A stretch of 64,000 bases of DNA from Planctomycetota bacterium (GTDB lineage Bacteria; Planctomycetota; UBA1135; UBA2386), in contig JBFWWV010000004.1 of assembly GCA_050245995.1 (NCBI GenBank), positions 234,104 to 298,103 on the forward strand, written 5' to 3'. Made by a program: the position numbers and the translations under genes. The notes under the pieces are model-generated. The model was not told the origin of the DNA. It did not search any database and saw nothing but the letters and a program-made list of their open reading frames with translations. Positions 1-16,308 of the stretch are shown piece by piece (within the stretch, counting starts at the first letter, position 1; each line of letters starts with the position of its first letter).

Positions 1-3000
1 ACCAACGCGAATCCGACCTCGAGCAGCTGCGCGCGCTGCTGCAGGCCGCGACGCCGGTGGCCGATCCCGCCGCGGGGCTCGGGCGGCTGCAGGAGCTGCG
101 CACGGCGGCGGCCGGCCCGGACGCGCTGGCGCGCGACCTGTGCGAGGCCGAGGGCCGCTGGCTGCGCGCCGAGGCGCACGGCCGCAACGAGCTGGCGGCG
201 GCGGCGACCGCCTGCGGCGATGCGCTGCTGCGCCTGCGCGCGCGCAGCTGCAGCCGGGCGCCGGCCGACGACGTCGACGCCCTGTTCGAGGTGGCGATGG
301 CGATCGCCGGCCACCGGCAGCGCGGCGACGCCGAGACCGCCGACGCGCTGGCGGCGCAGCTGGTCGCGCGGCTCGAGGCCGTGACCGACACCGACCGCCT
401 GTGCCAGGAGGCCGACGAGCGCTGGGCGCAGCTGACCGGCGCCGACGACGACCGGCCGTTGCGCGAGCAGGTCTCGGATCTGCGCGCCACCGGCATGCTG
501 CTGCGCGAGCTCGCCGACCGCAACGACAGCGCGCGGCTGCGGCGGCGCTCGCGGCGGGCGCTGCGCGCGGCCGACGACCGCGAGCTGCAGGCGCGGCTCG
601 AGGCGCTGCTGGGCCACCGCGGTGTGATCGCGCTGGAGACCGGCAGCTTCGTGCTGCTGCTGCTGGTGCTGGTCGTGCTGGTGGTCGAGGCCACGGTCGC
701 GCTGACCGACCGGCAGCTGGTCTGGCTGCACTGGGTCGACGGGCTGGCCTGCGCGTTCTTCGTCGCCGAGTTCGGGCTCAAGCTGGCGCTGGCGCCGCAC
801 CGGGGCTCGTGGTTCCTGCGCAACGTGCTGACCGACCTGCTGCCGGCGCTGCCGGCGGTGCTGTGGCTGCTGCCCGGCCCCGCGCTGCCGGGCGCCGCCG
901 ACGACGTGGTGATGGTGCGGCTGCTGCGGCTGCTGCGCGTGACCTGGGCGGCCCGCTACGTGCAGGCGCTGCGGCCGCTGCTGCGCACCGCGCGCCTCGT
1001 GCTGCTGATGGTGCGCGGCATGGACGGGCTGGTGCGCCGGTTCCGGTCGCTGCTCGACCGGAACTTCGTGTTCCTGGCCGGCGCGCCGGTCGAGTCGGTC
1101 GCGCAGGAGACGCGGCGCGACGTGGTGTTCGCGGCGCTGGTGCGCGAGCGGTCGCTGTTCGCGGCGCTGCCGGCGGACCGGCGACACGGCGTGCTGGCCG
1201 CGCGACTCGCCGCGGTCACGGCGCGCGCCGACGCGTTGCCGGGCGCCTGGCAGCAGTCGGTCGAACGCGCGCCCGAGCGCGACATCCCGGTCGAGCGCGC
1301 CTGCGAGTTCCTGTGGTCGCTGCGCGCCAGCGACGTCGACCGCTACCTGCGGCCCGCCGACCTGCGCGCGCTCGACCGCGTCGCCCGCGTCGTCAGCACC
1401 GCGCCGCTGTGCTGGCTTCCGATCCTGCGGCGGTTCGCGGTGCGGCCGCAGCCGGCGCAGCCCGAGGAGCGGGTGATCGCGCTCGGCCGCAACGTCGCCG
1501 ACTGGCTGATCGGCTGGCAGGACCGGCTGCAGTTCTTCGCCGACCTGCACGGCATCGTCACCGGACCGCAGATCCTCGACCGCGTCGCCAGCGCGATGGT
1601 CAAGGCGTCGCAGCGTCCGGCCGTGCGCCTCCTCCTGTTCGGCGGCCTGTTCCTGCTGTTCGACCTGCTGATCGGCAACGAGAGCGTCAGCCGCTTCCTG
1701 AAGAACATCGTCGTCGGTCCGCTGCTGATCCTCGGCTCGTTCTGCCTGGTCACGCTCGGCACCGGCTGGTGGCTCAAGCGCGTCGCCGGCGAGGCCAACG
1801 AGACCTTCCGGCTGCTCAGCGAGGCGCACTTCGTGTCGCTGCTGAGCCTGAGCAAGCGGCGGCACGAGCGCGCCGACACCGAGTTCCTGGGCGAGCGGGT
1901 GCTGGCCGACGTCACGCCCGGGGACCCGGTCCAGCTGCTGCGGCTGCAGCTGGCCGGGGCGCGCGCCGGCGTGCCGGTCGACGTCGTCGGCTTCGACGAC
2001 CGCGAGGAGCGGCTCGGCAGCGCGGTGGCGCTGCTGTACCTGCACTTCCTCGACGGCGCCCTGCTGCACGGCAGCGACGTCAAGACCACCGAGCAGCTGC
2101 TGGCCAACCTGGCGCTCGACAACCTGCGGCAGGCGCACCTGGGCTACTCGCGGCGCGACAAGAAGCGGCTGTGGCAGCTGCGGCTCGACGACGGCTCGGT
2201 GCTGCGCGGCCCGTTCCTGTGGTTCCGCTTCATCACCGAGTCGATCACCGTCGAGACCAGCAAGCGCATCGCCGAGTACAACCGCCGCTGCGTGCCGCTC
2301 GAGCGGCTCGCGGAGCTCTCGCCGGCCCGGCGGCAGGCCCTGCACGACTGGCTGCAGCAGCGCCGCGACCCGAAGGCCGGGCGCACCGTCGAGCGGCTGG
2401 AGTCGCCGGACGCGGCCAGCGGCTACACCACGACCGAGTTCCACGCGCTGCACTTCCTGACCGTCGATCGCGCCCGCGACGACCACGTGCGCGCGCTGTT
2501 CGGCGACGAGGTGCTGGCGGCGCTGCAGCAGGACCGCCGCAACATGATCCGCGAGATCTTCGGCATGCGGCCGGCGCGCGAGCTCGCGTCCAGCACCCGC
2601 GCGTTCAACGCCTGGAACCTGTACTGGTCGCGGCTGTCGCACGGCCGCGTGTTCCTGCTGCCGGTGTGGGCGATCGCGCGGGCGTTCGGCGGCGTCTGGT
2701 GGTTCGGTGGGCGCATGCGGCAGATCGTGCGCGAGGTGCTGCGGCCGCAGCTCGCGCAGCAGCAGCGCGAGTCGGGCGCGGCCACGTTCGGCGTGGCGCT
2801 GCGCAAGATCCACCGGATGAAGGCGCCGGGCCTGCTCGAGGCGATCCGCACGCGGCTGGCGCTCGACCCGGTCTACGGCGGCGCGCCGGCCGGCTGGAGC
2901 GACGTCGACGCGGCGGTGGCGCACGGACGCTCGCAGCTCGAACGCGACCTCGACTTCCTGCAGCTGCACGAGCGCGAGCGCGCGGTGTTCCGCGACCAGG

Positions 3001-3602
3001 CCGCCTGGAATCGCGAGCACGTGGCGACGCTGCACGCGGCGCTGTCGTGGCTGCCGCCGCTCGGCGATCCGCAGGCGTCGGCGGCCCTGCGGCGCGACGC
3101 CGAGCTGGCGGTGACGGTGGCGTGGCTCAGCGACCGCGACGCCGTGCGCACGCTGCTCGCGGCCGAGCCCTGGCGGCTCGGCGACCTGCCGGAGATCCTG
3201 CAGCGCGAGGTGCCGATCGGCCTGCTGCGCCGCGCGTGCTGGGCGGTGCAGGACCTGTTCGGGACGCACCCCACGGCGGTGTTCGCGCGCCGCCAGGGTC
3301 TGCGGTTGGCCCGGCGCGAGCGCCGCAACCTGCGCGCTGCCTGGGTCGACGAGCAGCGCGTGCGCGCGGTGATCGCGGCCTGGAACGCGCTGCCCGCCGG
3401 CACCGGCCCGGCGCAGGCGGCGCTCGACCGGCTGCGCGCGTTCTGGCGCGGCGGCGAGCAGGTGCGGCGCGAGCTGACCGCGCTGCGCGCGATCCAGTCG
3501 CTGTCGGTGCTCGACGTGCGCAACTACCGCGAGGCGGTGTTCGAGATCGGCGGCTACCAGCAGGACGGCGAGGACCCGGCGCCGGCGCGGAGCCTGCCGT
3601 GA
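1..3602 (+). CDS. 5'-truncated large membrane protein with voltage-sensor-domain (VSD)-like 4-TM module, no pore domain
   Basis: Track ORF 57..3602 begins at GTG, but the frame stays open to the window edge (first full codon at 3), so the gene is 5'-partial. Four TM helices: S1; S2 with acidic FFVAEFGLKL; S3 RNVLTDLL; S4 arginine ladder RLLRLLRVTWAARYVQALRPLLR. No S5-P-S6 pore or selectivity filter follows. There is a later 2-TM hairpin and a ~600-aa cytoplasmic C-terminal region of unknown function. The stop overlaps the next start (GTGA). Confidence 0.7.
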   Translation, partial: QRESDLEQLRALLQAATPVADPAAGLGRLQELRTAAAGPDALARDLCEAEGRWLRAEAHGRNELAAAATACGDALLRLRARSCSRAPADDVDALFEVAMAIAGHRQRGDAETADALAAQLVARLEAVTDTDRLCQEADERWAQLTGADDDRPLREQVSDLRATGMLLRELADRNDSARLRRRSRRALRAADDRELQARLEALLGHRGVIALETGSFVLLLLVLVVLVVEATVALTDRQLVWLHWVDGLACAFFVAEFGLKLALAPHRGSWFLRNVLTDLLPALPAVLWLLPGPALPGAADDVVMVRLLRLLRVTWAARYVQALRPLLRTARLVLLMVRGMDGLVRRFRSLLDRNFVFLAGAPVESVAQETRRDVVFAALVRERSLFAALPADRRHGVLAARLAAVTARADALPGAWQQSVERAPERDIPVERACEFLWSLRASDVDRYLRPADLRALDRVARVVSTAPLCWLPILRRFAVRPQPAQPEERVIALGRNVADWLIGWQDRLQFFADLHGIVTGPQILDRVASAMVKASQRPAVRLLLFGGLFLLFDLLIGNESVSRFLKNIVVGPLLILGSFCLVTLGTGWWLKRVAGEANETFRLLSEAHFVSLLSLSKRRHERADTEFLGERVLADVTPGDPVQLLRLQLAGARAGVPVDVVGFDDREERLGSAVALLYLHFLDGALLHGSDVKTTEQLLANLALDNLRQAHLGYSRRDKKRLWQLRLDDGSVLRGPFLWFRFITESITVETSKRIAEYNRRCVPLERLAELSPARRQALHDWLQQRRDPKAGRTVERLESPDAASGYTTTEFHALHFLTVDRARDDHVRALFGDEVLAALQQDRRNMIREIFGMRPARELASSTRAFNAWNLYWSRLSHGRVFLLPVWAIARAFGGVWWFGGRMRQIVREVLRPQLAQQQRESGAATFGVALRKIHRMKAPGLLEAIRTRLALDPVYGGAPAGWSDVDAAVAHGRSQLERDLDFLQLHERERAVFRDQAAWNREHVATLHAALSWLPPLGDPQASAALRRDAELAVTVAWLSDRDAVRTLLAAEPWRLGDLPEILQREVPIGLLRRACWAVQDLFGTHPTAVFARRQGLRLARRERRNLRAAWVDEQRVRAVIAAWNALPAGTGPAQAALDRLRAFWRGGEQVRRELTALRAIQSLSVLDVRNYREAVFEIGGYQQDGEDPAPARSLP

Positions 3603-5011
3603 GCGCGGACCCTGCTGCGGACCCGGGCCCGGAGCGGGAGCGCGCGCAGCGGCACCGCGCGCTGCTGTGGCTGTGCGTGGCGGCCGTGTGCGGGCGCTGG
3701 CTGCTGGCAGCGCGCACGCCGGTGCCGGCCGAGGACGGCGTCAACTACCTGTGGATGGCGCAGCGGTTCGCCGCCGGCGACGCGGCGGCAGCGCTGGCCG
3801 AGCCGTTCTCGCCGCTGTGGCCGCTGCTGCTGGCGCTGCCGATCGCCTGCGGCGCGCCGGCGTTCCTGGCCGGCCAGGTCGCCGGCGCGCTGGTCGGCGG
3901 GCTCGGGATCCTGCCGATCGCCGCGATCGCCGAACGGCTGCGGCGCGGCGCCGGCCTGCCGGCCGCGGCGCTGGCGACGACGTCGTCGGTGCTGGCGCGC
4001 ACCGCGCCCGAGGTGCTCACCGAGCCGCTGTTCGTGCTGGTCGCGGGGCTCGGCGCGTGGGCCGGGCTCGCGGGCCGGTACTGCTGGCTCGGCGTCGCCA
4101 CCGGCGCCGCGTTCCTGGTGCGGCCCGAGGGCGCGATCCTGATGCTGCCGTGGCTGGTGTTGCGGCCGCGCGCGGCGTGGCGCGCGCTGCCGTTCGCGGC
4201 CGGGCTGATCGCCGCCTTCGCCGCGTGGCGCATGGCCTGCGGCCACGGCTTCGACCCGGTGCCGAAGATGCAGTTCCACGAGCTGCGCCAGGACCTCGGC
4301 GGCGCGCGCGGCGACCTGCCGGCGAACGCGCTGCAGGCGCCGGGCGTGTTCCTCGAGGCGTTCGCCGGCGCGGCGGTGCTGGCGGTCCTGTCGCTGTGGC
4401 CGCGGCGGCGCGTCGCGCTGCGTGCGCCGGACCCGACCGCGCGCGTCGCCGCCGACGACGCGCGCCGCGGCGAGCGGGCGCTGTGGCTGCTGCTCGGGCT
4501 CGGCGCGCTGGTGATCTGCACGTTCGTCGCGCGGCGCCGGTTCTTCGTGTCCTGGGCGCCCGCGGTGCTGCCGCTCGCCGGCGTCGCGCTGGCGCGCATG
4601 CAGGCGATCGGCGCGCGCGGCCGCGAACTGCTGCTGGCGCTGTGCTGCGGCCTCGACCTGTGGACCAGCTTCCACGGCACCATCGCCGCCGACCGCTTGG
4701 CCGAGCGGCTGGTGGGCGAGTACCTCGGTGCGCGGCTCGCGCCGGGGCAGACCGTGGTCGCCGACATGACGCGCGTGCTCTGGTTCGCCGGCCAGCGGCC
4801 GCTGCCGCCCCGGCACTTCGACGCCGCGTACTACCTGGAGCACGCGGCGCGGCCCGAGGTCGAGTTCGTCGTGCTGCACGAGGAGAGCCGCCGCGGCATC
4901 TACGGCGACGTGGTGCGCGGGCTCGGCGCCGCGTTCGCGCGGTTCGACCTGCCCGGCGGCCTGCGCGATCTGGCGGATCGGCGCGGCATCGCGGTGTTCG
5001 TGCGCAGGTAG
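3599..5011 (+). CDS. GT-C fold membrane glycosyltransferase (ArnT/PMT-like, GT39/GT83-type)
   Basis: C-terminal real part of track ORF 140..5011. Start taken as GTG 3599, in frame and overlapping the upstream stop. About 10 TM helices. Periplasmic-loop motif AEDGVNYLW after TM1, typical of polyprenyl-phosphate-sugar-dependent GT-C enzymes. The 140..3598 part of the track ORF is Arg-rich off-frame noise. Confidence 0.6.
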   Translation: MSADPAADPGPERERAQRHRALLWLCVAAVCGRWLLAARTPVPAEDGVNYLWMAQRFAAGDAAAALAEPFSPLWPLLLALPIACGAPAFLAGQVAGALVGGLGILPIAAIAERLRRGAGLPAAALATTSSVLARTAPEVLTEPLFVLVAGLGAWAGLAGRYCWLGVATGAAFLVRPEGAILMLPWLVLRPRAAWRALPFAAGLIAAFAAWRMACGHGFDPVPKMQFHELRQDLGGARGDLPANALQAPGVFLEAFAGAAVLAVLSLWPRRRVALRAPDPTARVAADDARRGERALWLLLGLGALVICTFVARRRFFVSWAPAVLPLAGVALARMQAIGARGRELLLALCCGLDLWTSFHGTIAADRLAERLVGEYLGARLAPGQTVVADMTRVLWFAGQRPLPPRHFDAAYYLEHAARPEVEFVVLHEESRRGIYGDVVRGLGAAFARFDLPGGLRDLADRRGIAVFVRR

Positions 5012-5114
5012 CCGGGTCGCCGGCGCGCGCGGGCTCTTCGTCGGGACCTACTTTGCAAAGCAAAGCCAAGGGCGCTAGCATGCGCCCGCGGCGCGGTCGT
5101 GGGCGGCCGCCGAG

Positions 5115-7796
5115 GTGACGATGCGAACGACGTTGCTGTCCGTTCTGGTTCTGGTGCTGGCCGCTGTGGTCGGGTGGCTGGCCTTCGGCGGCGGTGGCGC
5201 GCCGGCGGCGCCGGAAGGGGACGCTGCCGGTGGGTCGCCGACGACCGCGCCCCCGGCCGTCGTTGCTGCGGAGACTCGCGCCGATGCGGGCGGCGCCAAC
5301 GCGACCGCTCCCGGCACTTCGGCGCGCGTCGCGGCAGGGCCGCCGGTGACCGAGGCAGTCGACGACGAGGTGCAGGCCGAACCGCCGCCCATTCCGGACA
5401 ACGCGGAGACGCTGGTCGTGCGCGTGGTCGACGCGGCGACGCAGGCGCCGGTCGCCGGCGCCGAGGTGCGGTGGGCGGACATGGGGTTCATCATCCAACG
5501 GCGCATGGCGGGGCTGCCGCGCGGGGCTTCGTTCGGCGACCTGCGGGAGCTCGATCCCGAGGACCTGGCGCGCCGCTTCGGCTGGACCGCGCGCACGGAC
5601 GCGCGCGGCGAGGCGGTGGTGCAGATGGCGAACGCGGCCACGGTGTGCGCGCGTCACGGCGAGCGCTACGGGCAGACGCAGGTGGACCCGCGCAAGCCGC
5701 CGCCCGAGGGCGTCCGCATCGAGCTGCGGGTGGACCGGGCGCTGCGCGTCCTGGTTCGCTCGGCGGCCGGCGACCCGGCCGGCCCCGTGCCGCTCGAACT
5801 GGTCGCGGTGCGCACCAGCGGCCCGCCGCGTCAGGTGGCCCGCGCCGAGTCGGGTGCCGACGGCGCGGCGGTGTTCGCGCACGCTCAGGAGCTGCAGCTC
5901 GGCCGCAGCGACGGCGCGTGCCGGGTGCGGGCGGCGCTGCCGGGTCTCGACGATGCCGGGGTCGAGGTCGACCCGCGGTCGCCGCCGGCCGAGCCGGTGG
6001 TGCTGCAACTGCCGCCGTGCGGTCGGGTGCTGGCGGCGATCGACGTCGGCGCCGTGCGCCGTGCCGAGGGGCAGATCACGCTGGCCGCCGCCGCCGACCC
6101 GATGGTGAACCAGCTGCGCGCGTCGATCGACGACGACGGCTGGGCGCGGTTCGCCTGGGTGCCGGCGGGGACGAGGTTCGTGGCGACGGCCAGCTTCGAC
6201 CGCGTCGGCGCGCGCCACGAGTTCGCCGGCCCGCCGGGCGACGGTGACGAGGTGCGGGTCGAACTGCGCCCCGACCCCGGGGTGGTGATCGTCGCCGGAC
6301 GGGCCGTGGACTCCCGGGGGCGCGCGCTCGGCGGGATGCAGGTCGGCCTGCAGTTCCGGATCGGCACCGGCCGCGTCTCCGGCTCGGCGCAGACCGGCGC
6401 CGACGGCACGTTCCGGTTCGCGGCCGGCCCGGCGGCCAACCCGCCGCGCATCGACGAGCTGACCATCACCGTGTCGAAGGTCGACTGCCTGCGGTCCTCG
6501 GTCACGCGCGGGCCGCTCGACCTGCCGGCGGGGCTCACCGACCTCGGCGAGCTGGTGTTCGCCGAGGAACGCCTCGTGGTCGCCGGTCGCTTCGACGGGC
6601 CCGGCGCGCGCTCGGAGCGCCGCCGCGGCATGTCCGTCGAGCGCTGGTCGGCCGGCGAGGCCGGCGTCGAGGCCGGCTGGCGCGCGGTCGAGGGGCTGAG
6701 CCACTTCCAGCACGAAGGCGCGTTCGCCTTCGGCGGCGACACCGCGCCCGGCCGGCACCGGCTGGTGGTCGGCGTGCGCGGCGAGTTCGACCGCCAGGAG
6801 GTCGAGTTCGCGCTCGGCACCGACGATCTCGTGGTGCACCTCGCCGAGACCTTCGGCCTGCGCGTTCGGGTGCTGGCGCCGCCGGGCGTGCCGGCGGCGC
6901 GGGTGGCGCTGCGGCGCGCGGGCGACGCCGTGGTTGCGCCGCCCAGCGAAGGCGTCGCGGCGGTGTTCGACCAGCGCATCCGCCGGGTCTTCGACGACCG
7001 CATCCAGGTGTGGAGCGAGCTGCCGCCCGGCACCTACGCCGTCGCGGTCCTGTGCGTCGATCGCGACCTGGTGCTCGCCGAGCGAACGGACCTGGTGCTG
7101 CCGGCGCCGGGCGGCGGTGAGCTGCCGCTGGTCGAGCTGGACGTGCGCGACCTCCTGCGGCGCATCGAGCTGAAGTTCCGCGCCGCCGACGGCGCCCCGA
7201 TCCCGTTCGGCGGCAAGGCGGCGGTGTTCGACCTGCCGCCCGCCGACCCCGCGCGCTGGCAGGGGCACCGCGCGCAAGGCAGCGGCTGCACGCTGGTCGT
7301 GCCGGCGGGGCCGCGCGACCTGCTGGTGACGGTCGACGGCTTCCGGCCGCAGCGGCTCGCGGGTGTGGACGGCGATCGCGAGGTCGTCCTCGAGCGCTGG
7401 GGCGACCAGGAGTTCACGGTGACCGGCGCGGCGTCGCCGCCGGGCACCGAGCTGCGGCTGCGCGTCCTGCCGGTGACCCCCGCGAGCACGGCGCGTTATC
7501 GCATGCCGTTCGGCGACGAGGGCGCTGCCGGCGACCTGCTCACGCCCGGCGGGGTCGCCACGCCGCTGCAGGACGGAACCGTGCGCGTGCCCGTCGCCGA
7601 CGGCGAGCACCGCGTGGCCGTCGAGCTCTGGCCCAAGGGCGCGCTGCAGTTCGGCCAGCCCGGCCGCAACGTGATCCCGCTCGAGGGCATCGCGCCGGCG
7701 ACGTTCGTGCCCGGCCCGACGCCGGTCGAACTGCGGATCGACGCCGCCGCCGTCAAGGACGCCGTCCGGCGGTCGCTGCAGGGGCAGCGCCGCTGA
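5115..7796 (+). CDS. secreted/membrane-anchored protein with multiple carboxypeptidase-regulatory-like (CarD_reg/transthyretin-like) beta-sandwich repeats
   Basis: ATG preceded by GAGGTGA SD. N-terminal signal anchor MTMRTTLLSVLVLVLAAVVGWLAF. Repeated motifs of the type VVRVVDAATQAPVAGAEVRW, AGRAVDSRGRALGGMQVGLQF and TGADGTFRF. Paralogous to the C-terminal region of the sigma-fusion protein at 46140..49211. Confidence 0.7.
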   Translation: MTMRTTLLSVLVLVLAAVVGWLAFGGGGAPAAPEGDAAGGSPTTAPPAVVAAETRADAGGANATAPGTSARVAAGPPVTEAVDDEVQAEPPPIPDNAETLVVRVVDAATQAPVAGAEVRWADMGFIIQRRMAGLPRGASFGDLRELDPEDLARRFGWTARTDARGEAVVQMANAATVCARHGERYGQTQVDPRKPPPEGVRIELRVDRALRVLVRSAAGDPAGPVPLELVAVRTSGPPRQVARAESGADGAAVFAHAQELQLGRSDGACRVRAALPGLDDAGVEVDPRSPPAEPVVLQLPPCGRVLAAIDVGAVRRAEGQITLAAAADPMVNQLRASIDDDGWARFAWVPAGTRFVATASFDRVGARHEFAGPPGDGDEVRVELRPDPGVVIVAGRAVDSRGRALGGMQVGLQFRIGTGRVSGSAQTGADGTFRFAAGPAANPPRIDELTITVSKVDCLRSSVTRGPLDLPAGLTDLGELVFAEERLVVAGRFDGPGARSERRRGMSVERWSAGEAGVEAGWRAVEGLSHFQHEGAFAFGGDTAPGRHRLVVGVRGEFDRQEVEFALGTDDLVVHLAETFGLRVRVLAPPGVPAARVALRRAGDAVVAPPSEGVAAVFDQRIRRVFDDRIQVWSELPPGTYAVAVLCVDRDLVLAERTDLVLPAPGGGELPLVELDVRDLLRRIELKFRAADGAPIPFGGKAAVFDLPPADPARWQGHRAQGSGCTLVVPAGPRDLLVTVDGFRPQRLAGVDGDREVVLERWGDQEFTVTGAASPPGTELRLRVLPVTPASTARYRMPFGDEGAAGDLLTPGGVATPLQDGTVRVPVADGEHRVAVELWPKGALQFGQPGRNVIPLEGIAPATFVPGPTPVELRIDAAAVKDAVRRSLQGQRR

Positions 7797-7828
7797 ACTG
7801 GCGCTGAACTGCCGGTGATCCGGCGCGG

Positions 7829-8764
7829 TCAGGCCTCGGTCGGCGCCGGCATCGCGGTGCGGCCGCGGCCCAGCAGCTCCGCGCACAGCACGCCGGCGGC
7901 GATCAAGGCACCGCCGGTCCACTCGAGGCCGGTCATCCGTTCGCCGAGCAGCACCGCGCCGCCGAGCGCCGCGAACGCGGGTTGCAGCGCGAACAGCACC
8001 GCGACCTGCGACTGGCGGATGCGCGGCTGCGCGCGCGCCTGGATGCCGATCGCGATCGCCAGCGCGAACACGCCGAGGAACGCGATGCAGCCGAGCACCT
8101 GCGGGTCGGCGCCCCACGTCGCGACCTCGCCGACGCCGCCCCACAGCGGCATCGCCGCGCTCACGCCGACGGCGACGGTCAGCAGCTGCCACCAGCAGTA
8201 GACGGTCTCGCGGCCGCCGCGCGCGAGCCGCGACAGCACCAGCACGTGCGCGGCGTAGCTGATCGACGAGCCGGCCAGCAGGGCCACGCCGAGCAGCGAG
8301 GTGTCGGCGTCGGGGTCCGCGGGCGGCGCGCCGCCGAAGCACAGGAACGCCACGCCGGCGGTGCCGAGCGCCACGCCGAGCACCGTCGGCGCGCGCAGCC
8401 GTTCGCCGAACAGGACCACGGCGCCGACCGCGACCAGCAGCGTGATCAGCCCGGTCAGGAAGCCGCCGACCGACGCGGTGGCGTGCTGCATGCCGGTCGT
8501 CTGCAGCACGTAGCCGAGCAGCAGGAACAGCCCGGTGACCACGCCGCGCAGGGCCTCGCTGCGCAGCGTGCCGTCTCGACGGCCGCGCAGCGCCCACGGC
8601 AGCAGGCACAGCACGGCGAGCCAGAACCGCGCCGTCAGCAGCGCGAACGGCGGCACGCCGCGGTCGAGCGGCACCTTGACCGCGGAGAACGACACGCCCC
8701 AGATGGCGATCGCGATCAGCAGCAGCAGTTGGGGCGGCACCCGGGGCATCGGCGCGCGCAGCAT
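7829..8764 (-). CDS. EamA/DMT-superfamily transporter
   Basis: Real C-terminal 311 aa of track ORF 7829..9751, starting at MLRAPMPRV. About 10 TM helices with two EamA-type halves. The N-terminal 329 aa of the track ORF are Arg/Pro-rich noise. Confidence 0.8.
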   Translation of the reverse strand: MLRAPMPRVPPQLLLLIAIAIWGVSFSAVKVPLDRGVPPFALLTARFWLAVLCLLPWALRGRRDGTLRSEALRGVVTGLFLLLGYVLQTTGMQHATASVGGFLTGLITLLVAVGAVVLFGERLRAPTVLGVALGTAGVAFLCFGGAPPADPDADTSLLGVALLAGSSISYAAHVLVLSRLARGGRETVYCWWQLLTVAVGVSAAMPLWGGVGEVATWGADPQVLGCIAFLGVFALAIAIGIQARAQPRIRQSQVAVLFALQPAFAALGGAVLLGERMTGLEWTGGALIAAGVLCAELLGRGRTAMPAPTEA

Positions 8765-8793: not shown

Positions 8794-11103
8794 TCAGCGG
8801 CCGCCGTCGCCGGCGCCCTGCTCGCCCTGTCCGCCCGGGCGGCGGCCGCGGCGCCCGCCGGCGCCGGGGCGCGGGCCGGGGCCCTGGCCCTCGTAGGCCG
8901 GCAGCCGCAGCAGCTCGGGGTCGAGCTGCAGGAGCGCCTGCTCCAGGCGCTGCAGCAGGTCCTTGCGCTCGGCGGTCGTCAGCTTGGCGCGCAGCATCCG
9001 CGCGGTGTCGGCGGCGGAGATGTTCAGGCCGTCCATCGTCGCGGTCGCCTCCGGCTTCTGCGCGAACGCGGCCAGCAGCTGGTCGGTGGCGCCCGCGAGG
9101 TCGTCCTGCTCGAGCAGCACGCGGGCGCGGCCGGCGTGCGCGATCGCGAGGTAGTGGTCGACGTTCGACCGGGTCTCCGGGTCGGCCGCGGCGCAGCGCT
9201 CGTAGCGCGCGATCGCGCGGTCGTAGGCCTCGAGCGCCGCGGTGGCCTCGCCCTGGCGTCGGTGCTGTTCGGCGACCACCAGCGTGGCGTAGCCGGCGAA
9301 CCACGCGGTGCGCGCCGTCGGCCGCTGCTCGAGCATGCGCACGTAGGCGCGCTCGAGGCCGTCGATGCCGCGCTGCCGCAGCAGCTGGTCGCGCAGCCGT
9401 TCGTGCAGCATCGGCGACTCGGGGAAGCGCTGCAGCCCCTCGGCCAGGATCCGGTCGGCCTCGGCGTGGGCGCTGAGCGCGCGCACGAAGTCGTAGTGGT
9501 CGGCCACGTGGAAGTCGCGCCCGAGCGGGTGCCGCGCCAGCACCGAGTACGCGGTGTGCACGTCGGTCAGCCACTGCGGCGGCCACTCCGTCTTGTTGCG
9601 GATCGCGTCGACGATCGCGTTCTGCCGCGCCTCGGCGAAGATCTGCATCGCCGCCATCGCCGCGTAGCTCGACGCGTCCTGCGGCAGGATCTGCGCGGCC
9701 TGCTCGGCCTCCTTGTAGGCGGTCGGGAAGTCGCGCTGATGCCAGGCGCACGCGGCGAGCAGCGCGTGCAGCCGGAAGGTGCCGTCGACGACGGCGTCCA
9801 CGCCGAGCTCGCCGGCGCGCCGCGCCGCGCGCTTGGCGTCCTCGAGCAGCAGCCGCGCGTGCCGCCGGGCCCAGCGCTGGTTCTCGTGCGGGCTCGGCTC
9901 GTACTGCACCGCCAGCTGCAGCGTCGATTCGGCGAGCTGCAGGTGCGCGGCGGCGTCGCGCGGCGCCTCGAGCAGCGCCTGCTCCTGCTGCTGCAGCTCG
10001 GCCTCGATCGCGTAGCTGGTGGCCGCCGCGGCCGGCGGCTGCGCATCGGCCAGCGCCTGCGCCCAGCCGCGCACGTCGACGCCGCCGTCGGTGCCGGCCA
10101 GGCCGTCGTGCACCGCCGCCAGCGTGCGCGCCTGCGGCGAGGTCTCGCCGAGCCGGCGCAGCGCCGCCACCAGGCGGTCTCGTTCGCCCTGGTCCATCGG
10201 CACGCGCAGCGCCTCGGCGATCAGGTCGACGGCGCCGCCCTGGTCGGTCTGCGACAGCGTCGCCCGCGCCTGCTGCGCGCGGTCGACGTCGAGACCGAAC
10301 ACGCCGAGCCGCAGCAGGTCGACCGGCGCGTCACCCTGCAGCTGCGCGGCCGCGGCGAGCAGCGCGTCCTTCATCGGCGCGTCGCCGTCGGCGAAGGCCT
10401 GCTCGACCGCCTCGCGGTCGCGCACGTCGGCGCTGGCCACGCGCTCGAGGATCGAGCGGTCGCCGCGAACGACCGGCTCGGCCCGGATCGCGCGGTTCTC
10501 GATGCCGTTCTTGATCGCCGCGAACACCGAGTCGGTGTCGAACGCGTAGTAGACGTCGTAGACCTCGCTGCCGTCGAGCTCGACCATGATGTGGCGCGGC
10601 GCGATGCGACGGCCGTCCATGAACTTCTCGTACAGCAGCGGCTCGATCGCGATGTGCTCGCCGCACGTCACGCTGCCGAAGCGCGGGCACGGGATGCGGT
10701 GGCCGTGCTCGTCGTAGTCGCGCGGGTTGTGGCGGTACACCGACGCCATCACGCAGACGTACGGCTCGTACAGCGCCGCGATCTCGGGCTGGCGATAGCG
10801 GATGCCGGCGTAGTGCTCGCTGGCGATCTCGCCGTCCATGTTGATGCACACCAGGATCGCGCGCTTCTGCTCCTGCGCGAGCCGGACCGCGTCGTCCCAG
10901 GTGCGCTGGAACGTGATCTGCACCGGCTTCTTCCAGTCCTCGGCGGTCGGCGCGTACCACATCTGTTCGCGCGTGACGCCGTCGGGCAGCTGCGCGGTGA
11001 GCGGCGCCGCCGCGGCGAGCAGCAGGGCGCAGCGCGACAGCGGGCGGAGCAGGGAACGCGCGCGGACGGTCCGGTGCGCGGCGGGTCGTTGGGACGAGTT
11101 CAT
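8794..11103 (-). CDS. secreted hypothetical protein: N-terminal Cys-containing globular domain plus long TPR-like helical region and Gly/Arg-rich tail
   Basis: Real part of track ORF 8794..12726, starting at MNSSQRPAAHRTVRARSLLRPLSRCALLLAAAAPLTAQ (signal peptide). Domain with CINMDG...CVMASVY...CPRFGSVTCGEH (possibly thioredoxin-like or metal-binding; uncertain). Helical repeats follow, then a low-complexity C-terminal PGPRPGAGGRRGRRPGGQGEQGAGDGGR. Confidence 0.6.
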   Translation of the reverse strand: MNSSQRPAAHRTVRARSLLRPLSRCALLLAAAAPLTAQLPDGVTREQMWYAPTAEDWKKPVQITFQRTWDDAVRLAQEQKRAILVCINMDGEIASEHYAGIRYRQPEIAALYEPYVCVMASVYRHNPRDYDEHGHRIPCPRFGSVTCGEHIAIEPLLYEKFMDGRRIAPRHIMVELDGSEVYDVYYAFDTDSVFAAIKNGIENRAIRAEPVVRGDRSILERVASADVRDREAVEQAFADGDAPMKDALLAAAAQLQGDAPVDLLRLGVFGLDVDRAQQARATLSQTDQGGAVDLIAEALRVPMDQGERDRLVAALRRLGETSPQARTLAAVHDGLAGTDGGVDVRGWAQALADAQPPAAAATSYAIEAELQQQEQALLEAPRDAAAHLQLAESTLQLAVQYEPSPHENQRWARRHARLLLEDAKRAARRAGELGVDAVVDGTFRLHALLAACAWHQRDFPTAYKEAEQAAQILPQDASSYAAMAAMQIFAEARQNAIVDAIRNKTEWPPQWLTDVHTAYSVLARHPLGRDFHVADHYDFVRALSAHAEADRILAEGLQRFPESPMLHERLRDQLLRQRGIDGLERAYVRMLEQRPTARTAWFAGYATLVVAEQHRRQGEATAALEAYDRAIARYERCAAADPETRSNVDHYLAIAHAGRARVLLEQDDLAGATDQLLAAFAQKPEATATMDGLNISAADTARMLRAKLTTAERKDLLQRLEQALLQLDPELLRLPAYEGQGPGPRPGAGGRRGRRPGGQGEQGAGDGGR

Positions 11104-11258
11104 GAGCTGGAGCCGGCGCCGCGGTCGGCCGCCGGACCGTGCAGCGTAGCGGCTCGCGGCGCCGTCATCGAGGCATCCCGCCCGGCTGCTGTGCGCCCGC
11201 GACGAACTCGTCGCATCCGCGGTCGGCGCCGTTCCGCGCGCGTAGCGGCAAGGCGCCG

Positions 11259-12791
11259 TCAGCGCGGCGCGAGCTGCGGCAGCGCGCGCAGCCGCTCGGC
11301 GAGGACGCGGCCGGCGACCGCGTTGCCGCGCGCGTTCCAGTGGGTGTCGCGCAGCAGGTAGAGGTGCCGGTCGCCGTCGGCCAGCGCCGGCTCGGCCGCG
11401 AGCGCCGGCCAGAAGTCGACGCACGGGATCGCCGCGGCCTCGCACCAGCGCAGCAGCCGCTGCCGCAGCTCGTGCCGGCGCAGCGGCCGGCCGGCGGCGA
11501 TCTCGACGCGCCGCCACAGGGCGTCCTCGACCATCGACTCGTCGGGGATCAGCGCGAACAGCAGCGGGCGGTCCGCGCACAGCGTCCGCAGCCGACCGAG
11601 CTCGTGCTCGAACGCGGTCCAGCGCGCGGGATCGATGGTCGAGAACGCCACCGCGCGCTCGGTCTCGACGCGCAGGAACTCGTCGGGCGTGAAGGTGCCC
11701 GGCTCGCGGGGCGGATCGAGCAGCCACGGTCGCGCGCGCAGCACCGCGTCGAGGTCGGCGCCGGCGGCGGCCGACGCCGGCGTCGCGGCACCGCGCGCCA
11801 CCAGCAGCAGGCGCCGTGGCACCTCCCAGCACAGCAGATTGCCGCGGTCGAACCAGTCGCGCAGCCACAGGTCGCCGACGCCGGCGCGCGGCGTCTCGAG
11901 CAGGTCGTTGCCGAGGAACAGGCTGACCACGACGACGTCGGGCGCGAGCGGCAGGACCTCGTTCTGCAGCAGCCAGCGGTACTCGGCCGGTCCGATCGCC
12001 GGCCAGCCCACGTTCCACAGCGCCGCCGGCCGGCCGGCCGCGGCGAGTGCGCGTTCGGCCACGGTCGTGTAGTGCATCGAGTGCGGCACGAAGCTGGCGC
12101 TGAACGAGTCGCCGATCACCGCCACCACGGCGCCGCAGTCCGCGCCCGGCGCGGCGAACGGCTCGTCGTAGAAGCCGCGGCCGTTGCACGCCGTGCCCAG
12201 GTGCACCTCGCCCGGGGCGAAGGCGTGCGCGCGCAGACGCCGCTGCGAGCCGGCGGCTGCGCGGGTCCACAGCGGCCCGGGCGCGATCGCGGCGGCGGCG
12301 CGCAGCGTCAGGTCGGCCAGCGGCACGCACAGGGCGAAGCCCACGCCGAGCCGCGCCAGGCGCCCCGGCGGTCGCGCCCGCTGCGGCGTCGGCGCCAGCG
12401 CCAGCAGCGCGGCCAGTACGCCGCCCCAGGCCGCGAACCACGCGCCGATGCGCGCGGTGTTGTAGGTCGAGGTGCCGAGCGCCATGGCAAGCCACAGCAG
12501 CACGGTGCCGCCGAGCGCGCGGCGGAGCAGGACGCCCGCCGCCGGGGCCGTGGCCGCGCGACGGTGCGCGCGCAGCCGCAGCGCCGCCAGCAGCAGCGCC
12601 AACGGCGCGAACGCAGCCATCGCGGTCAGCGCCAAGACGACCGGGCTGCCCCAGGGCGCCAGGTCGTCGTCGCTGGTCAGCGCACGGACGCCGCCCCAGA
12701 GCGCTGCCGCGGCGGCGAGCAGCCATGCGCCGAGCGCCACGGACCGCAGCGAGCGTCGTCTGTCCTCCATGCGCCGCAGCCCAGCGGGCAT
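11259..12791 (-). CDS. membrane-bound SGNH-hydrolase-type acyl-esterase/O-acetyltransferase-like protein (AlgJ/AlgX-like DTHW motif)
   Basis: Track ORF 11259..12983. Start chosen at M65 (MPAGLRRMEDRRR). Alternative starts are 12770 (M72) and 12812 (M58). Four N-terminal TM helices, then GDSxS block (IGDSFSASF) and DTHWN block characteristic of SGNH/DHHW polysaccharide O-acyltransferases. Confidence 0.65.
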   Translation of the reverse strand: MPAGLRRMEDRRRSLRSVALGAWLLAAAAALWGGVRALTSDDDLAPWGSPVVLALTAMAAFAPLALLLAALRLRAHRRAATAPAAGVLLRRALGGTVLLWLAMALGTSTYNTARIGAWFAAWGGVLAALLALAPTPQRARPPGRLARLGVGFALCVPLADLTLRAAAAIAPGPLWTRAAAGSQRRLRAHAFAPGEVHLGTACNGRGFYDEPFAAPGADCGAVVAVIGDSFSASFVPHSMHYTTVAERALAAAGRPAALWNVGWPAIGPAEYRWLLQNEVLPLAPDVVVVSLFLGNDLLETPRAGVGDLWLRDWFDRGNLLCWEVPRRLLLVARGAATPASAAAGADLDAVLRARPWLLDPPREPGTFTPDEFLRVETERAVAFSTIDPARWTAFEHELGRLRTLCADRPLLFALIPDESMVEDALWRRVEIAAGRPLRRHELRQRLLRWCEAAAIPCVDFWPALAAEPALADGDRHLYLLRDTHWNARGNAVAGRVLAERLRALPQLAPR

Positions 12792-13078: not shown

Positions 13079-14722
13079 ATGGCTGCCAGTCGTCTCGCGG
13101 CCAAAAGGTCCGTCGGTTCGTCCCGTTGCCCGTTGGCGCTCTGCCTGTGGGCGGCCTCTGCATGCACCGCCGGCTACCACGTCGAAGCCGCTGATCGGGA
13201 AGTCCAGGAGCTGCTCGCGAGCAGCACGGAGGCGGTGCGCACCGCGCGCAGCGCCCGCATCGTCCGGCCGGAGGTCGAGGTCGAGCCCGCGCCCTCGCCG
13301 GCGGCGGCCCCCGACCCCGCAGTCGCCGATCCCAGCGGGCCGATGGCCGTCGACCTGCACGGCGCGCTGGCGCTGGCGGTGCGGCACAACCGCGACTACC
13401 TGTCGCGCCACGAGGCGCTCTACCGGCAGGGGCTGTCGTACTCGTTCACGCGGTTCCAGTTCGGGCCGCTGTTCCAGTCGACGATCGCACACGTCTGGGC
13501 CGACCAGGAGAACGCGCTCGGCGTGCAGCGGCTCAGCGGCAACCTGGGCGTGAGCCAGATCCTGCCGACCGGCGGCCGGCTCGGCGCCGACGTGTTGCTC
13601 GGCCGCGACTGGTTCGAACGCACGGCCGGCGGCGGCGCGTTCGGCGACGGCCAGTACGACTCGGCGCTGGCGCTGACGCTGCGCCAGCCGCTGCTGCGAG
13701 GCGCGGGCTACGAGGTGTCGCACGCGGCGCTGACGCAGGCCGAGCGCGACCTCGTCTACGCGATCCGCGACTTCGAGCTGTTCCGCGAGAACTTCTCGAT
13801 CGGCATCGCCCGCAGCTTCTTCGACCTGGTCAGCCAGCAGCAGACGCTCGACAACGAGGAGACCAACCTGCGGCAGGCGGTGTTCGACCGCCGTCAGGCC
13901 GAGGCGCTGCTGCAGGTCGATCGCGTGACCGAGGTCGAGGTCTACCGCGCCCGGCGCCGCGAGATCGAGGCCGAGAACCGCCTGCTCGACGCGCGCGCGA
14001 CGTTCGAGCGCGCGCGCGACCAGTTCAAGATCGACATGGGCCTGCCGATCGCCGCCGCCATCGAGATCGCGCCGGCCGAGCCGCCGTTCGAGCCGGTGCG
14101 GTTCGATCCGGACTCCGCGGTTGCGTCCGCGCGCGCCAACCGCCTCGACCTGATCACCGAGCAGCAGCGCCTCGAGGACGCCGAGCGCGAGGTGCGCATC
14201 GCCGAGAACGCGGTGCTGCCGCAGCTCGACCTCGACGTCGGCGTGGGGCTCGGCGCCGACCCCGCCGGCGGGTTCGGCGCGGCGCTCCCCGACGAGTGGA
14301 ACGCCTCGATCGGCATCACCATGGCGCTGCCGCTGCAGCGCGTCGGCGAGCGCAACAACCTGCGCTCGGCGCAGATCGCGCTCGAGCAGGCTCGTCGCGG
14401 CTACGGCCTGCTGCTCGACCAGATCGAGCTGGAGATCAAGAACCAGCTGCGCAACCTGCGCAGCCTCGAGCAGCAGATCGCGCTGCAACGCGGCCAGATC
14501 GTTCAGGAGCAGCGCGCGGTGACCGTGACCGAGATCCGTTTCGAGTCCGGCGACCTCGACAACCGCGACCTGCTCGAGGCGCGCAACGCGCTGTTCGCGG
14601 CGCAGAACGCGCTGATCCAGCTGCAGGTGCAGCACTTCATCGCGCGCCTGCAGCTGCTGCGCGACCTCGGGTTGCTGTTCGTCGACGACGACGGCATGTG
14701 GGACGACGGAGCGGGACGATGA
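13079..14722 (+). CDS. TolC-family outer-membrane efflux protein
   Basis: Real part of track ORF 12725..14722 from MAASRLAAKRSVGSSRCPLALCLWAASAC (lipoprotein-like signal). Two OEP repeats with coiled-coil-rich helical segments. The stop overlaps the next start (ATGA). Confidence 0.8.
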   Translation: MAASRLAAKRSVGSSRCPLALCLWAASACTAGYHVEAADREVQELLASSTEAVRTARSARIVRPEVEVEPAPSPAAAPDPAVADPSGPMAVDLHGALALAVRHNRDYLSRHEALYRQGLSYSFTRFQFGPLFQSTIAHVWADQENALGVQRLSGNLGVSQILPTGGRLGADVLLGRDWFERTAGGGAFGDGQYDSALALTLRQPLLRGAGYEVSHAALTQAERDLVYAIRDFELFRENFSIGIARSFFDLVSQQQTLDNEETNLRQAVFDRRQAEALLQVDRVTEVEVYRARRREIEAENRLLDARATFERARDQFKIDMGLPIAAAIEIAPAEPPFEPVRFDPDSAVASARANRLDLITEQQRLEDAEREVRIAENAVLPQLDLDVGVGLGADPAGGFGAALPDEWNASIGITMALPLQRVGERNNLRSAQIALEQARRGYGLLLDQIELEIKNQLRNLRSLEQQIALQRGQIVQEQRAVTVTEIRFESGDLDNRDLLEARNALFAAQNALIQLQVQHFIARLQLLRDLGLLFVDDDGMWDDGAGR

Positions 14723-16308
14723 GCAAGGCAGTCTGGATCGCGGTGGTGCTCGGGTGCGGCGGCGGCGGCGCGTGGTGGCTCAGCGGCGACGGCGCCGCGG
14801 TCGCGGCCGGGGCCGCCGCCGACCCTTCGACCTACACCGTCGCGCGCGGCGATCTCGACATCACGATCACAGAGAACGGCACGCTGGTCGCCAAGGAGTC
14901 GCGCAAGGTCGTGCCGGAGTTCCGCGGCGAGGGCAAGATCGTGTTCCTGCTCGAGGAGGGCGCCGCGGTCCAGGAGGGCGACGTCGTCTGCCGCTGCGAC
15001 ACCTCCGGCCTCGAGGACCAGGTCGAGCAGCAGGAGATGGACATCGTGCAGGGCGAGGCCGCGCTGGTCACGGCGCGCACCGAGCTCGAGATCCAGATCG
15101 CCGAGAACGCCGCCGAGGTCGAGAAGGCGCGGATGACCCTCGACCTCATGCGCCAGGAGGACGAGAAGTACCGCGACGGCGTCGCGCCGCAGGACCGCCG
15201 CGTGCTCGAGGTCGGGATCAAGGACGCCGAGACCGAGTTCAAGCGCGCGCAGAAGCGCCACGAGGACTCGCAGCGGCTGGTCGAGCAGGACTTCATCAAG
15301 CGCAGCGAGCTCGAGCAGCACGCGATCGACCTGGAGAAGGCCACCGTCAAGCTGGAGAGCGCGCGGCAGGCGTTGGCCCTGCAGCTCAAGTACACCGCGC
15401 CGATGACGCTGCGCAAGAACACCAACGCGGTCGCCGACGCCGAGCGCGACCTCGAGACCGCGGAGAAGCGAGCCCGCTCGCGGCTCAACCAGCGCGAGGC
15501 CGACGTGCTGCAGGCGGAGAAGAAGATCAAGCGCCTGCAGCAGCAGCTCAAGGACCGTCGGGAGGACATCGAGAAGATGACCCTGAAGGCGCCGTGCCCC
15601 GGCATCCTGATCTACGGCGACCCGCGCGAGCCCTGGTACCGCGAGCAGTGCAAGGTCGGCGGCATGATCTACGGCGGCAACACGCTGATGACGATCCCCG
15701 ACCTGCGCGTCATGCAGGTCAAGATCGAGGTGCACGAGGCGGACATCAACAAGGTCGAGGTCGGTCAGCCGGTCGACGTGACGATGGACACCTACCCCGG
15801 CCTGCAGCTGCAGGGCGAGGTGTCCCGGGTCGCCAACATCGCCTCGTCGGGCAGCCCGTGGGAGCCGGTCAGCGAGGTCAAGAAGTTCGGCGTCGAGATC
15901 CTGCTCAAGGACACCGCGGCGCAGCAGCTGAAACCCGGCATCAGCGCCAAGGCCAGGATCCGGATCGCGCGCCGCGACGGCGTGCTCTACGTGCCGCTGC
16001 AGTGCGCCTTCCTCGAGGACGGCGGCCACCGCTGCCTCGTGGTCGGCCCCGACGGCCCGCAGCGGCGCGCGATCGAGGTCGGCATGAGCAACGACACCTG
16101 GATCGAGGTCCGGAGCGGCCTCGAGGCCGGCGAGCGGGTGCTGCTGCACAACCCGTTCCTGAGCGGGGCCCAGAAAGGCAAGGGCAAGGGCGAGGGCGAG
16201 GGCAAGGGCGAGGGCAACGGCGAGGGCGAGAGTGACGGTGGGGCCGAGGGTGGGGGCGCGAGCGGCGCGACGGCGGTCGAGGCCACGGCGACGCAGGACG
16301 GCCGGTGA
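14719..16308 (+). CDS. HlyD/MacA-type periplasmic membrane-fusion (adaptor) protein
   Basis: Real part of track ORF 14296..16308 from MSKAVWIAVVLGCGG. Long coiled-coil, beta-barrel/lipoyl and MP domains. C-terminal Gly/Glu/Lys low-complexity tail (GKGKGEGEGKGEGNGEGE). Start overlaps TolC stop and stop overlaps ABC ATPase start (GTGA). Confidence 0.85.
   Translation: MSKAVWIAVVLGCGGGGAWWLSGDGAAVAAGAAADPSTYTVARGDLDITITENGTLVAKESRKVVPEFRGEGKIVFLLEEGAAVQEGDVVCRCDTSGLEDQVEQQEMDIVQGEAALVTARTELEIQIAENAAEVEKARMTLDLMRQEDEKYRDGVAPQDRRVLEVGIKDAETEFKRAQKRHEDSQRLVEQDFIKRSELEQHAIDLEKATVKLESARQALALQLKYTAPMTLRKNTNAVADAERDLETAEKRARSRLNQREADVLQAEKKIKRLQQQLKDRREDIEKMTLKAPCPGILIYGDPREPWYREQCKVGGMIYGGNTLMTIPDLRVMQVKIEVHEADINKVEVGQPVDVTMDTYPGLQLQGEVSRVANIASSGSPWEPVSEVKKFGVEILLKDTAAQQLKPGISAKARIRIARRDGVLYVPLQCAFLEDGGHRCLVVGPDGPQRRAIEVGMSNDTWIEVRSGLEAGERVLLHNPFLSGAQKGKGKGEGEGKGEGNGEGESDGGAEGGGASGATAVEATATQDGR

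Follow-up and report, generated by a model that had tools for sequence, protein, structure and literature searches.

Here, a stretch of 64,000 nucleotides from an uncultured Planctomycetota bacterium (contig JBFWWV010000004.1, positions 234,104 to 298,103), referred to below as the window, was analyzed. Its first gene (gene 1) encodes a large membrane protein that holds a bona fide S1–S4 voltage-sensor domain (VSD). While the sensor is of a known superfamily, novelty lies in its effector, in the six-transmembrane (6-TM) architecture without a P-loop, in the bacterial host, and in the context of an extracytoplasmic function (ECF) sigma factor operon. The reading that we favor, with a probability of roughly 0.5, is that the protein would sense voltage or proton motive force (PMF) and be coupled to an effector other than a pore, as part of an ECF envelope-stress circuit. 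The GC content of the window is ~77%, and three plus-strand genes were picked out by frame analysis of third-position GC (GC3), at the same coordinates as in a preliminary description made from the letters of this DNA. Gene 1 runs over the left edge of the window; the upstream sequence shows that seven codons lie beyond it, so that 1199 residues fall inside the window and the full protein comprises 1206. Its product agrees at 100% identity with P0001, which is listed as a “hypothetical protein” of 1206 aa in a Planctomycetota metagenome-assembled genome (MAG). Residue numbers below refer to the window translation; those of the full protein are greater by 7.

The preliminary description proposed that the first gene carries a VSD, and here sequence, conservation in 51 plus 123 homologues, and predicted fold all agree that it does. 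The S4 string it quoted, RLLRLLRVTWAARYVQALRPLLR, is found at aa 306-328 (nt 918-986). Four consecutive TM helices arranged as an antiparallel bundle are indicated by both hydropathy and the AlphaFold2 (AF2) model, in which the helices span residues 177-231, 236-263, 268-288, and 303-346. The Pfam profile Ion_trans matches aa 215-330 with profile positions 8-122 of 241 (E = 1.7e-5), at a score of 24.6 bits, slightly below the 25-bit cut-off. This match covers S1–S4 alone in gene 1 and in 7/7 diverse family members, and the same half-match is observed in five of six distant representatives, the best of which, P0226, scores 31.8 bits and lies above the cut-off. Furthermore, when a profile of 51 homologues was compared with all PDB sequences, 28 of the 29 matches were VSD channels. 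The best, to S2–S4 of Kv4.2 (E = 6e-5), was confined to profile positions 217-337. In the Kv4.2 alignment, for which the family stretch is LRLLRLLRVTWAARYVQALRPL, the S2 Phe and Glu, the S3 Asp (aligned with D278), and the register of S4 coincide. The spacing D246-x6-F253-x2-E256 is equal to that of Shaker E283/F290/E293 and NavAb N49/F56/E59. The three NavAb residues are named in PMC13095418. The acidic charges of the domain form an outer pair, E229/D246, and an inner pair, E256/D278.

Conservation was analyzed in two sets: the 51 close homologues, and a distant set consisting of the cluster representatives retrieved by a search with the non-VSD part of the protein. Among the close homologues, residue 229 is E or D in 48/51. 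In S2, D246 is kept in 50/51, F253 in 51/51, and an acidic residue at position 256 in 49/51; D278 of S3 is invariant (51/51). Along S4 and beyond it, R306 (51/51), R309, R312, and R318 (50/51 each), R324 (48/51), and R331 (51/51) are retained. The same pattern extends to the distant rows (n = 125), in which position 246 is Asp in 123, position 256 acidic in 123, position 260 Arg or Lys in 122, and position 278 Asp or Glu in 114; at position 253, Phe is found in 83 and Leu in 40. Positions 306, 309, 312, 315, 318, 321, and 324 are each mostly Arg in these rows, and the wider family therefore possesses a full seven-charge S4. Regarding the fold, a model of the VSD only (aa 178-352, pLDDT 81.3, the predicted local distance difference test score) was submitted to Foldseek, the structural check proposed in the preliminary description. 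The KvAP VSD was returned first, with a probability of 0.97 and a target-normalised TM-score of 0.56, and approximately 45 of the top 50 matches were VSD proteins. Kv4.2, Kv3.1, Kv2.1, NavAb/Nav1.7, CatSper, SLC9C1, and NavEh are also among the proteins matched, next to generic helical bundles. A non-VSD fold and unconserved counter-charges are both ruled out, and therefore the VSD identification stands.

Beyond S4, the protein departs from a canonical channel. An S5–P-loop–S6 pore with a selectivity filter directly after S4 is absent from gene 1, as the preliminary description had stated. The K+ filter motif is found in 0/51 sequences, and no filter motif of the Nav/Cav type is conserved among them. 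The pore half of Ion_trans (profile positions 123-241) is unmatched, and the profile search of the PDB likewise gave no pore match. What that description missed is a conserved TM5–TM6 hairpin, which makes the product a 6-TM protein. Its outer loop comprises 2-20 residues, varies in both length and sequence across the 51 sequences, and contains no P-loop. Lack of a filter motif and a short, variable loop together imply that there is no P-loop pore. In the AF2 model the hairpin helices span 522-557 and 560-620, such that TM6 extends into the cytoplasm as a 60-residue helix.

The remaining regions are large and all-alpha. The long helix preceding S1 continues into S1, and the N-terminal domain ahead of it is the least conserved part of the protein (0.49-0.54), distant relatives carrying longer and different N-termini. 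The cytoplasmic insert between S4 and TM5 ends in a near-invariant motif, FFADLHGIVTGPQILDR (aa ~510-527), and the 50-residue block in which this lies, aa 501-550, is the best conserved of the whole protein (0.87). Next in conservation come aa 901-950 (0.82), then the last 50 residues (0.79), then S4 together with the post-S4 helix (0.78). The C-terminal region is rich in invariant polar motifs. One of its helices, at aa 882-913 (nt 2646-2741), is moderately hydrophobic, is flanked on either side by basic residues, and is probably membrane-associated. Outside the VSD, no match to gene 1 was obtained in Pfam, NCBIfam, PADLOC, PDB sequences, or PDB folds, in agreement with the earlier account of large cytoplasmic regions to which no function was assigned. 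As a separate observation, two membrane-embedded cysteines are nearly invariant, namely C250 in S2 (nt 750-752; 50/51) and C581 in TM6 (nt 1743-1745).

The family to which gene 1 belongs was delineated by several searches. A word-index search returned 137 full-length relatives at 44-65% identity, and every match bearing a source name was labelled as a Planctomycetota MAG. A single-sequence query with the non-VSD part (aa 350-1199), run on 1.84 billion cluster representatives, matched 412 clusters at E ≤ 1e-3 and 258 at E ≤ 1e-30. Full-length matches of this search measured 1150-1510 aa, with the matching part always formed by the C-terminal 850 residues. A hidden Markov model (HMM) of the VSD region matched 123/123 representatives of at least 1100 aa. 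The VSD is thus carried by all 123, and it and the 850-aa region, never met apart, form an obligate pair. A scan of one genome per species yielded 78 loci. Nearly all are in Planctomycetota MAGs; the exceptions are a few records whose title gives no more than “bacterium” and two fragments from a bin that carries the label Luminiphilus sp. Source names are confined to “hypothetical protein” and “ion transporter”, the latter resulting from the S1–S4 Pfam match alone. The literature search found no description of the gene 1 family, of bacterial pore-less VSD proteins, or of a bacterial VSD with a non-channel effector, and the view that the last are essentially uncharacterised is thereby upheld. 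The family thus constitutes an undescribed, Planctomycetota-restricted group of inner-membrane proteins of 1150-1500 aa. Beside one distant homologue, at L082 1-5816, a cluster resembling a diversity-generating retroelement (RVT_1, bAvd, HRDC) was observed, with two large TIR/NACHT/FGE-sulfatase proteins on its flanks; this cluster has no connection with the VSD finding.

The genomic context usually places gene 1 third, behind a putative regulatory gene pair. In L001, the locus of the window, an ECF sigma gene lies to the left of the window, followed by a gene for a 326-aa protein and then, after 99 bp, by gene 1. The sigma protein contains regions 2 and 4 only (Sigma70_r2, 6.7e-14; Sigma70_r4_2, 5.5e-12) and matches TIGR02937 at 77 bits, above the cut-off; its nearest family, TIGR02989, is matched below the cut-off. 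The start of the 326-aa protein abuts the stop codon of the sigma gene, and one TM segment is predicted at aa 93-121; a homologue search retrieved 14 proteins, all without a name. Both genes adjoin gene 1 upstream in 38/60 loci, the gap to gene 1 being mostly 34-170 nt, and a sigma gene is located near gene 1 in 43/60. In 33 loci, the motif TGTCCC-N16-17-GACAAT is found 7-9 nt ahead of the GTG start of the sigma gene (L005 8178-8204, L006 8412-8439, and 31 others). It occurs exactly once per locus and always before sigma, as determined from both strands of 1.37 Mb. L001 itself displays only a degenerate variant (TGTTCCC ... CATACT, ~334-362), about 60 nt upstream. Such a distribution fits a single promoter for the sigma gene, the 326-aa protein, and gene 1. 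It suggests that this promoter is autoregulated by the sigma factor, and the transcript is possibly leaderless.

Downstream, a homologue of gene 2, a putative glycosyltransferase of the GT-C type, adjoins gene 1 on the same strand in 38 of the 68 loci with enough flank, lies elsewhere in one, and is absent from 29. The sigma pair is at least as common a partner of gene 1 as this gene, and more distant family members possess neither. Other genes that recur near gene 1 encode a divergent WbsX-type glycosyltransferase (36 loci), a convergent EamA transporter (37), and a 431-aa protein of unassigned family (27). The preliminary description had inferred a membrane-potential-responsive envelope-glycosylation module and recommended an analysis of operon conservation. 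That analysis recovers the GT-C neighbour in 38/68 loci and, in addition, a sigma gene situated outside the window. A module of fixed composition is contradicted by the 29 loci without the GT-C gene. Gene 3 is found by tblastn in this species only. A role in defence is unlikely, since PADLOC gave no match for genes 1-3 or the 326-aa protein. In some relatives, as at locus L081, the slot after gene 1 is occupied by a 981-aa protein (13670-16615), in which N-terminal Sigma70_r2/r4_2 is fused to CarboxypepD_reg/Big_1-like domains; this sigma-fused envelope protein replaces both the GT-C gene and gene 3. Orthology between it and gene 3 was considered and rejected, the likeness being at the repeat level only (E = 0.001).

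From these elements, a mechanism can be proposed. S4 would move with the membrane potential or PMF, and its movement would reach the cytoplasmic domains by way of two of the most conserved segments, the post-S4 helix and the motif ahead of TM5. The cytoplasmic domains may then act as a signalling platform or non-pore effector of an ECF envelope-stress circuit, in which they would either modulate the pair of sigma factor and putative anti-sigma factor or form the main output of the circuit. This output would act alongside the genes that modify envelope glycans (GT-C, WbsX glycosyltransferase, EamA). A bolder version, which we hold only tentatively and consider less likely than the general one, describes a bacterial electro-transcriptional switch, in which the VSD would read PMF and a cytoplasmic effector of ~800 aa would control an ECF sigma/anti-sigma pair and, through it, the remodelling of the envelope.

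Several observations weigh against the sensor–effector reading. Within the gene 1 subclade, W315 and Q321 occupy positions that are mostly Arg in the wider family, of which 315 is aligned with K5 of Kv channels; two gating charges have thus been lost in this lineage. Foldseek gave the VSD only weak E-values (0.3 and above), and confidence in the full-length AF2 model is low for the S3–S4 loop and for S4 in its N-terminal half (pLDDT < 50 for aa 305-315). No recognizable catalytic or signalling fold was detected in the effector region by the family and fold searches listed above, and the TM5–TM6 hairpin could build an oligomeric, non-canonical pore. For the 326-aa protein, no anti-sigma domain was found in Pfam or NCBIfam, and no PDB match, phmmer included. 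The sigma pair is missing in 17/60 loci and in the distant clade and is therefore not obligatory. Finally, the carriers of the family are throughout uncultured MAGs.

Four other explanations were considered. The first regards the protein as a non-canonical voltage-gated channel or transporter, in which TM5–TM6 of several subunits would line a conduction path without a P-loop, gated by the VSD, with the long cytoplasmic extension of TM6 as an assembly or gating bundle. It appears unlikely, although it fares best among the four: the hairpin lies 190 residues beyond S4 rather than being joined by a short S4–S5 linker, its outer loop is short, variable, and devoid of a filter motif, the pore half finds no counterpart in Pfam or the PDB, and the name “ion transporter” has no source other than the S1–S4 match. 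A second possibility, to which somewhat less weight is given, is that the domain is a VSD by descent that no longer senses voltage and acts as a static anchor or as a module binding lipids or a partner, in the manner of the S1–S4 domains of Slo2 or the MlotiK1 type. The replacement of Arg by W315 and Q321 and the uncertainty of AF2 regarding S4 are consistent with such a loss. It is opposed by the (near-)invariance of R306, R309, R312, R318, D246, the acidic residue at 256, D278, and F253 in the close homologues. It is also opposed by the charged positions, which are still charged in the 123 distant representatives, where position 253 is Phe in 83 and Leu in 40 of the 125 rows. Such retention is the pattern that functional sensing would impose, and it is not known from non-sensing S1–S4 domains.

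The third explanation, a voltage-gated proton path of the Hv1 type (or an omega-type path) that would run within the VSD and be regulated by the remaining parts of the protein, is very improbable. In its favor are the lack of a canonical pore beside the VSD, the three outer arginines, and the Trp of S4. However, S1 is entirely hydrophobic at aa 216-228 and offers no mid-membrane acidic residue, the S4 motif reads RLLRLLRVTW and not RxWRxxR, the F253 plug is intact, and the protein is four times the length of Hv1. The last holds that the regular spacing of Arg arises artificially from an Arg-rich genome of 77% GC and that the TM module is not a VSD. It can be practically dismissed: Arg does account for 12.9% of residues, and the RxxRxxR ladder on its own, with uncharged spacers, arises in 18% of composition-preserving shuffles, which makes the caution of the preliminary description on this point a fair one, but the whole S2–S3–S4 signature arises in only 0.4%, the HMM, profile, and fold matches are specifically to VSDs, and the charge positions and S2/S3 counter-charges are kept across homologous loci of 56-76% GC regardless of that content.

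Coordinates of the features are collected below.

Table 1. Features of the gene 1 region in the window (residues numbered by the window translation; nt, window positions).
Feature	Residues (aa)	Position (nt)	Strand	Basis and remarks
Gene 1, VSD-containing protein		1..3602	+	reading frame from nt 3; GC3 0.96-1.00; translation
N-terminal cytoplasmic helical-repeat domain, eight helices	1-175	3..527	+	AF2, pLDDT ~90
S1	212-232	636..698	+	invariant E212, outer acidic E229
S2	236-263	708..791	+	D246, F253 (hydrophobic plug), E256, basic K260
S3	268-288	804..866	+	invariant D278; kink P281/P284
S4	303-322	909..968	+	in-register R306, R309, R312, (W315), R318
Post-S4 basic amphipathic helix	324-346	972..1040	+	R324, R328, R331, R338, G339, D341, R346
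Cytoplasmic insert between S4 and TM5, ~190 aa	347-538	1041..1616	+	no Pfam or PDB match
TM5–TM6 hairpin	539-594	1617..1784	+	hydropathy; AF2 helices
C-terminal all-alpha region	595-1199	1785..3599	+	motifs DVKTTEQLLAN, WFRFITES, RKIHRMKAP, LDVRNYR
Gene 2, divergent GT-C-type membrane glycosyltransferase (supported), 470 aa		3599..5011	+	GC3 frame, homologues
Gene 3, lineage-specific protein, 893 aa		5115..7796	+	GC3 frame
EamA/DMT-family transporter gene, convergent		7829..8749	-	equals L001 9876-10796, offset 2047

The overlap between the stop codon of gene 1 and the GTG start of gene 2, reported earlier as GTGA, is real and located at 3599-3602. Gene 2 contains ~10 hydrophobic segments between aa 19 and 362 and a C-terminal soluble domain of ~105 aa. 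The sequence itself falls below every Pfam and NCBIfam threshold, and its family profile found no match in the PDB. Among its 36 aligned homologues, five match PMT_2 (best 1.5e-7), five GT87 (2.4e-6), and two PIG-V, all three of them families of the GT-C clan, and some bear the source names DUF2029 or GT87. The family motif P-x-E-D-G-x-x-Y-L-W, in which P43, D46, Y50, L51, and W52 are invariant and E45 nearly so, directly follows TM1, where the catalytic acidic motif of GT-C enzymes is located. Because homologues match GT-C families and the E45-D46 motif follows TM1, the identity of gene 2 as a divergent GT-C enzyme is supported. The label “ArnT/PMT-like” is a fair description.

Gene 3 had been described as a signal-anchored protein with CarD_reg repeats. 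One CarboxypepD_reg match does occur, at aa 393-440, but at 27.3 bits against a cut-off of 32.3, and self-BLAST revealed no internal repeats; a phmmer search of the PDB was also without a match. The hydrophobic N-terminal anchor exists only if translation starts at 5115 or 5121. The ATG at 5121 (891 aa) is preceded by GAGG 6 nt upstream, the public annotation has the gene begin at 5346 (816 aa), without the anchor, and an A/G/P-rich linker obscures the codon-position signal at the start. In the intergenic region 5012-5114, between genes 2 and 3, a perfect GC palindrome with a 6-bp stem is located at 5070-5087 (GGGCGC-TAGCAT-GCGCCC), beside which lies an unusually AT-rich stretch, TACTTTGCAAAGCAAAGCC. 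These could constitute an internal promoter or operator, and gene 3 may therefore be a separate transcription unit.

The window also contains many other long open reading frames (ORFs), among them ones of 1300-1600 aa at 140-5011 (+), 4017-8609 (-), and 8794-12726 (-). GC3 lends them no support, and they represent shadow ORFs in non-coding frames, caused by the 77% GC content. On the minus strand at L001 10841-14817 (window ~8794-12770), genes for a 769-aa protein without a family match and a 503-aa ALGX/GDSL-like protein of the polysaccharide O-acetylation type were observed, and a plus-strand gene for an OEP outer-membrane factor comes after the latter. Together they add further envelope-polysaccharide genes to the surroundings of the locus.

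If the switch described above is true, gene 1 would be the first prokaryotic VSD with a non-pore output and would represent a new class of VSD effector. Either outcome widens the VSD repertoire, whether by a voltage-regulated non-channel protein or by a voltage-gated channel with a novel pore. Furthermore, an ECF operon with envelope glycosylation neighbours provides a testable hypothesis for how voltage may be converted to gene expression in bacteria. The family could also provide biophysics, or the engineering of voltage indicators, with a compact prokaryotic VSD.

With respect to known systems, the Hv1, VSP, and canonical channel identities were rejected on their defining features. Ci-VSP measures 576 aa. 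In Ci-VSP and TPTE, S4 is followed by a PTEN-like phosphatase and C2 domain, whereas gene 1 has no Pfam or PDB match in that region. Its product is bacterial, has about double the length, and contains two additional TM helices. All four of the S4–S5 linker, P-loop, selectivity filter, and S6 gate of KvAP and Kv4.2 are lacking, and the K5 position of Kv channels is Trp in the gene 1 clade. SLC9C1, the sperm Na+/H+ exchanger, is eukaryotic, and neither its transporter domain nor its cyclic nucleotide-binding domain is found in gene 1. TMEM266/HVRP1 is a short, eukaryotic VSD-only protein, unlike gene 1. Hv1 resembles gene 1 in having a VSD without a separate pore and three S4 arginines; it differs in its S1 selectivity Asp and RxWRxxR motif, both absent here, and in lacking the ~1000 extra residues. 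According to the review PMC13095418, VSDs are found only on P-loop channels, Hv1, VSP/TPTE, TMEM266, and SLC9C1, and the non-channel cases are all eukaryotic.

For the accompanying genes, gene 2 resembles the GT-C enzymes (PMT_2/ArnT-like, GT87, PIG-V) in its number of TM segments and in the E-D motif of the first loop, and differs in its sub-threshold family scores and in a profile without a PDB match. At the level of the whole system, the nearest precedent for a sensor of membrane state in an ECF operon is SigX-CfrX-CmpX (ECF102) of Pseudomonas aeruginosa, in which the MscS-like CmpX takes part in sigma regulation (PMC7826278). The sigma factor of the gene 1 locus is instead nearest, below the cut-off, to the Rhodopirellula/Verrucomicrobium family TIGR02989. 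The membrane protein of the Pseudomonas system is a homologue of mechanosensitive channels, whereas a VSD is found here, for which a regulatory role is only proposed. In both systems, an ECF sigma factor and a putative anti-sigma factor are encoded together with a membrane protein of an ion-channel sensor family.

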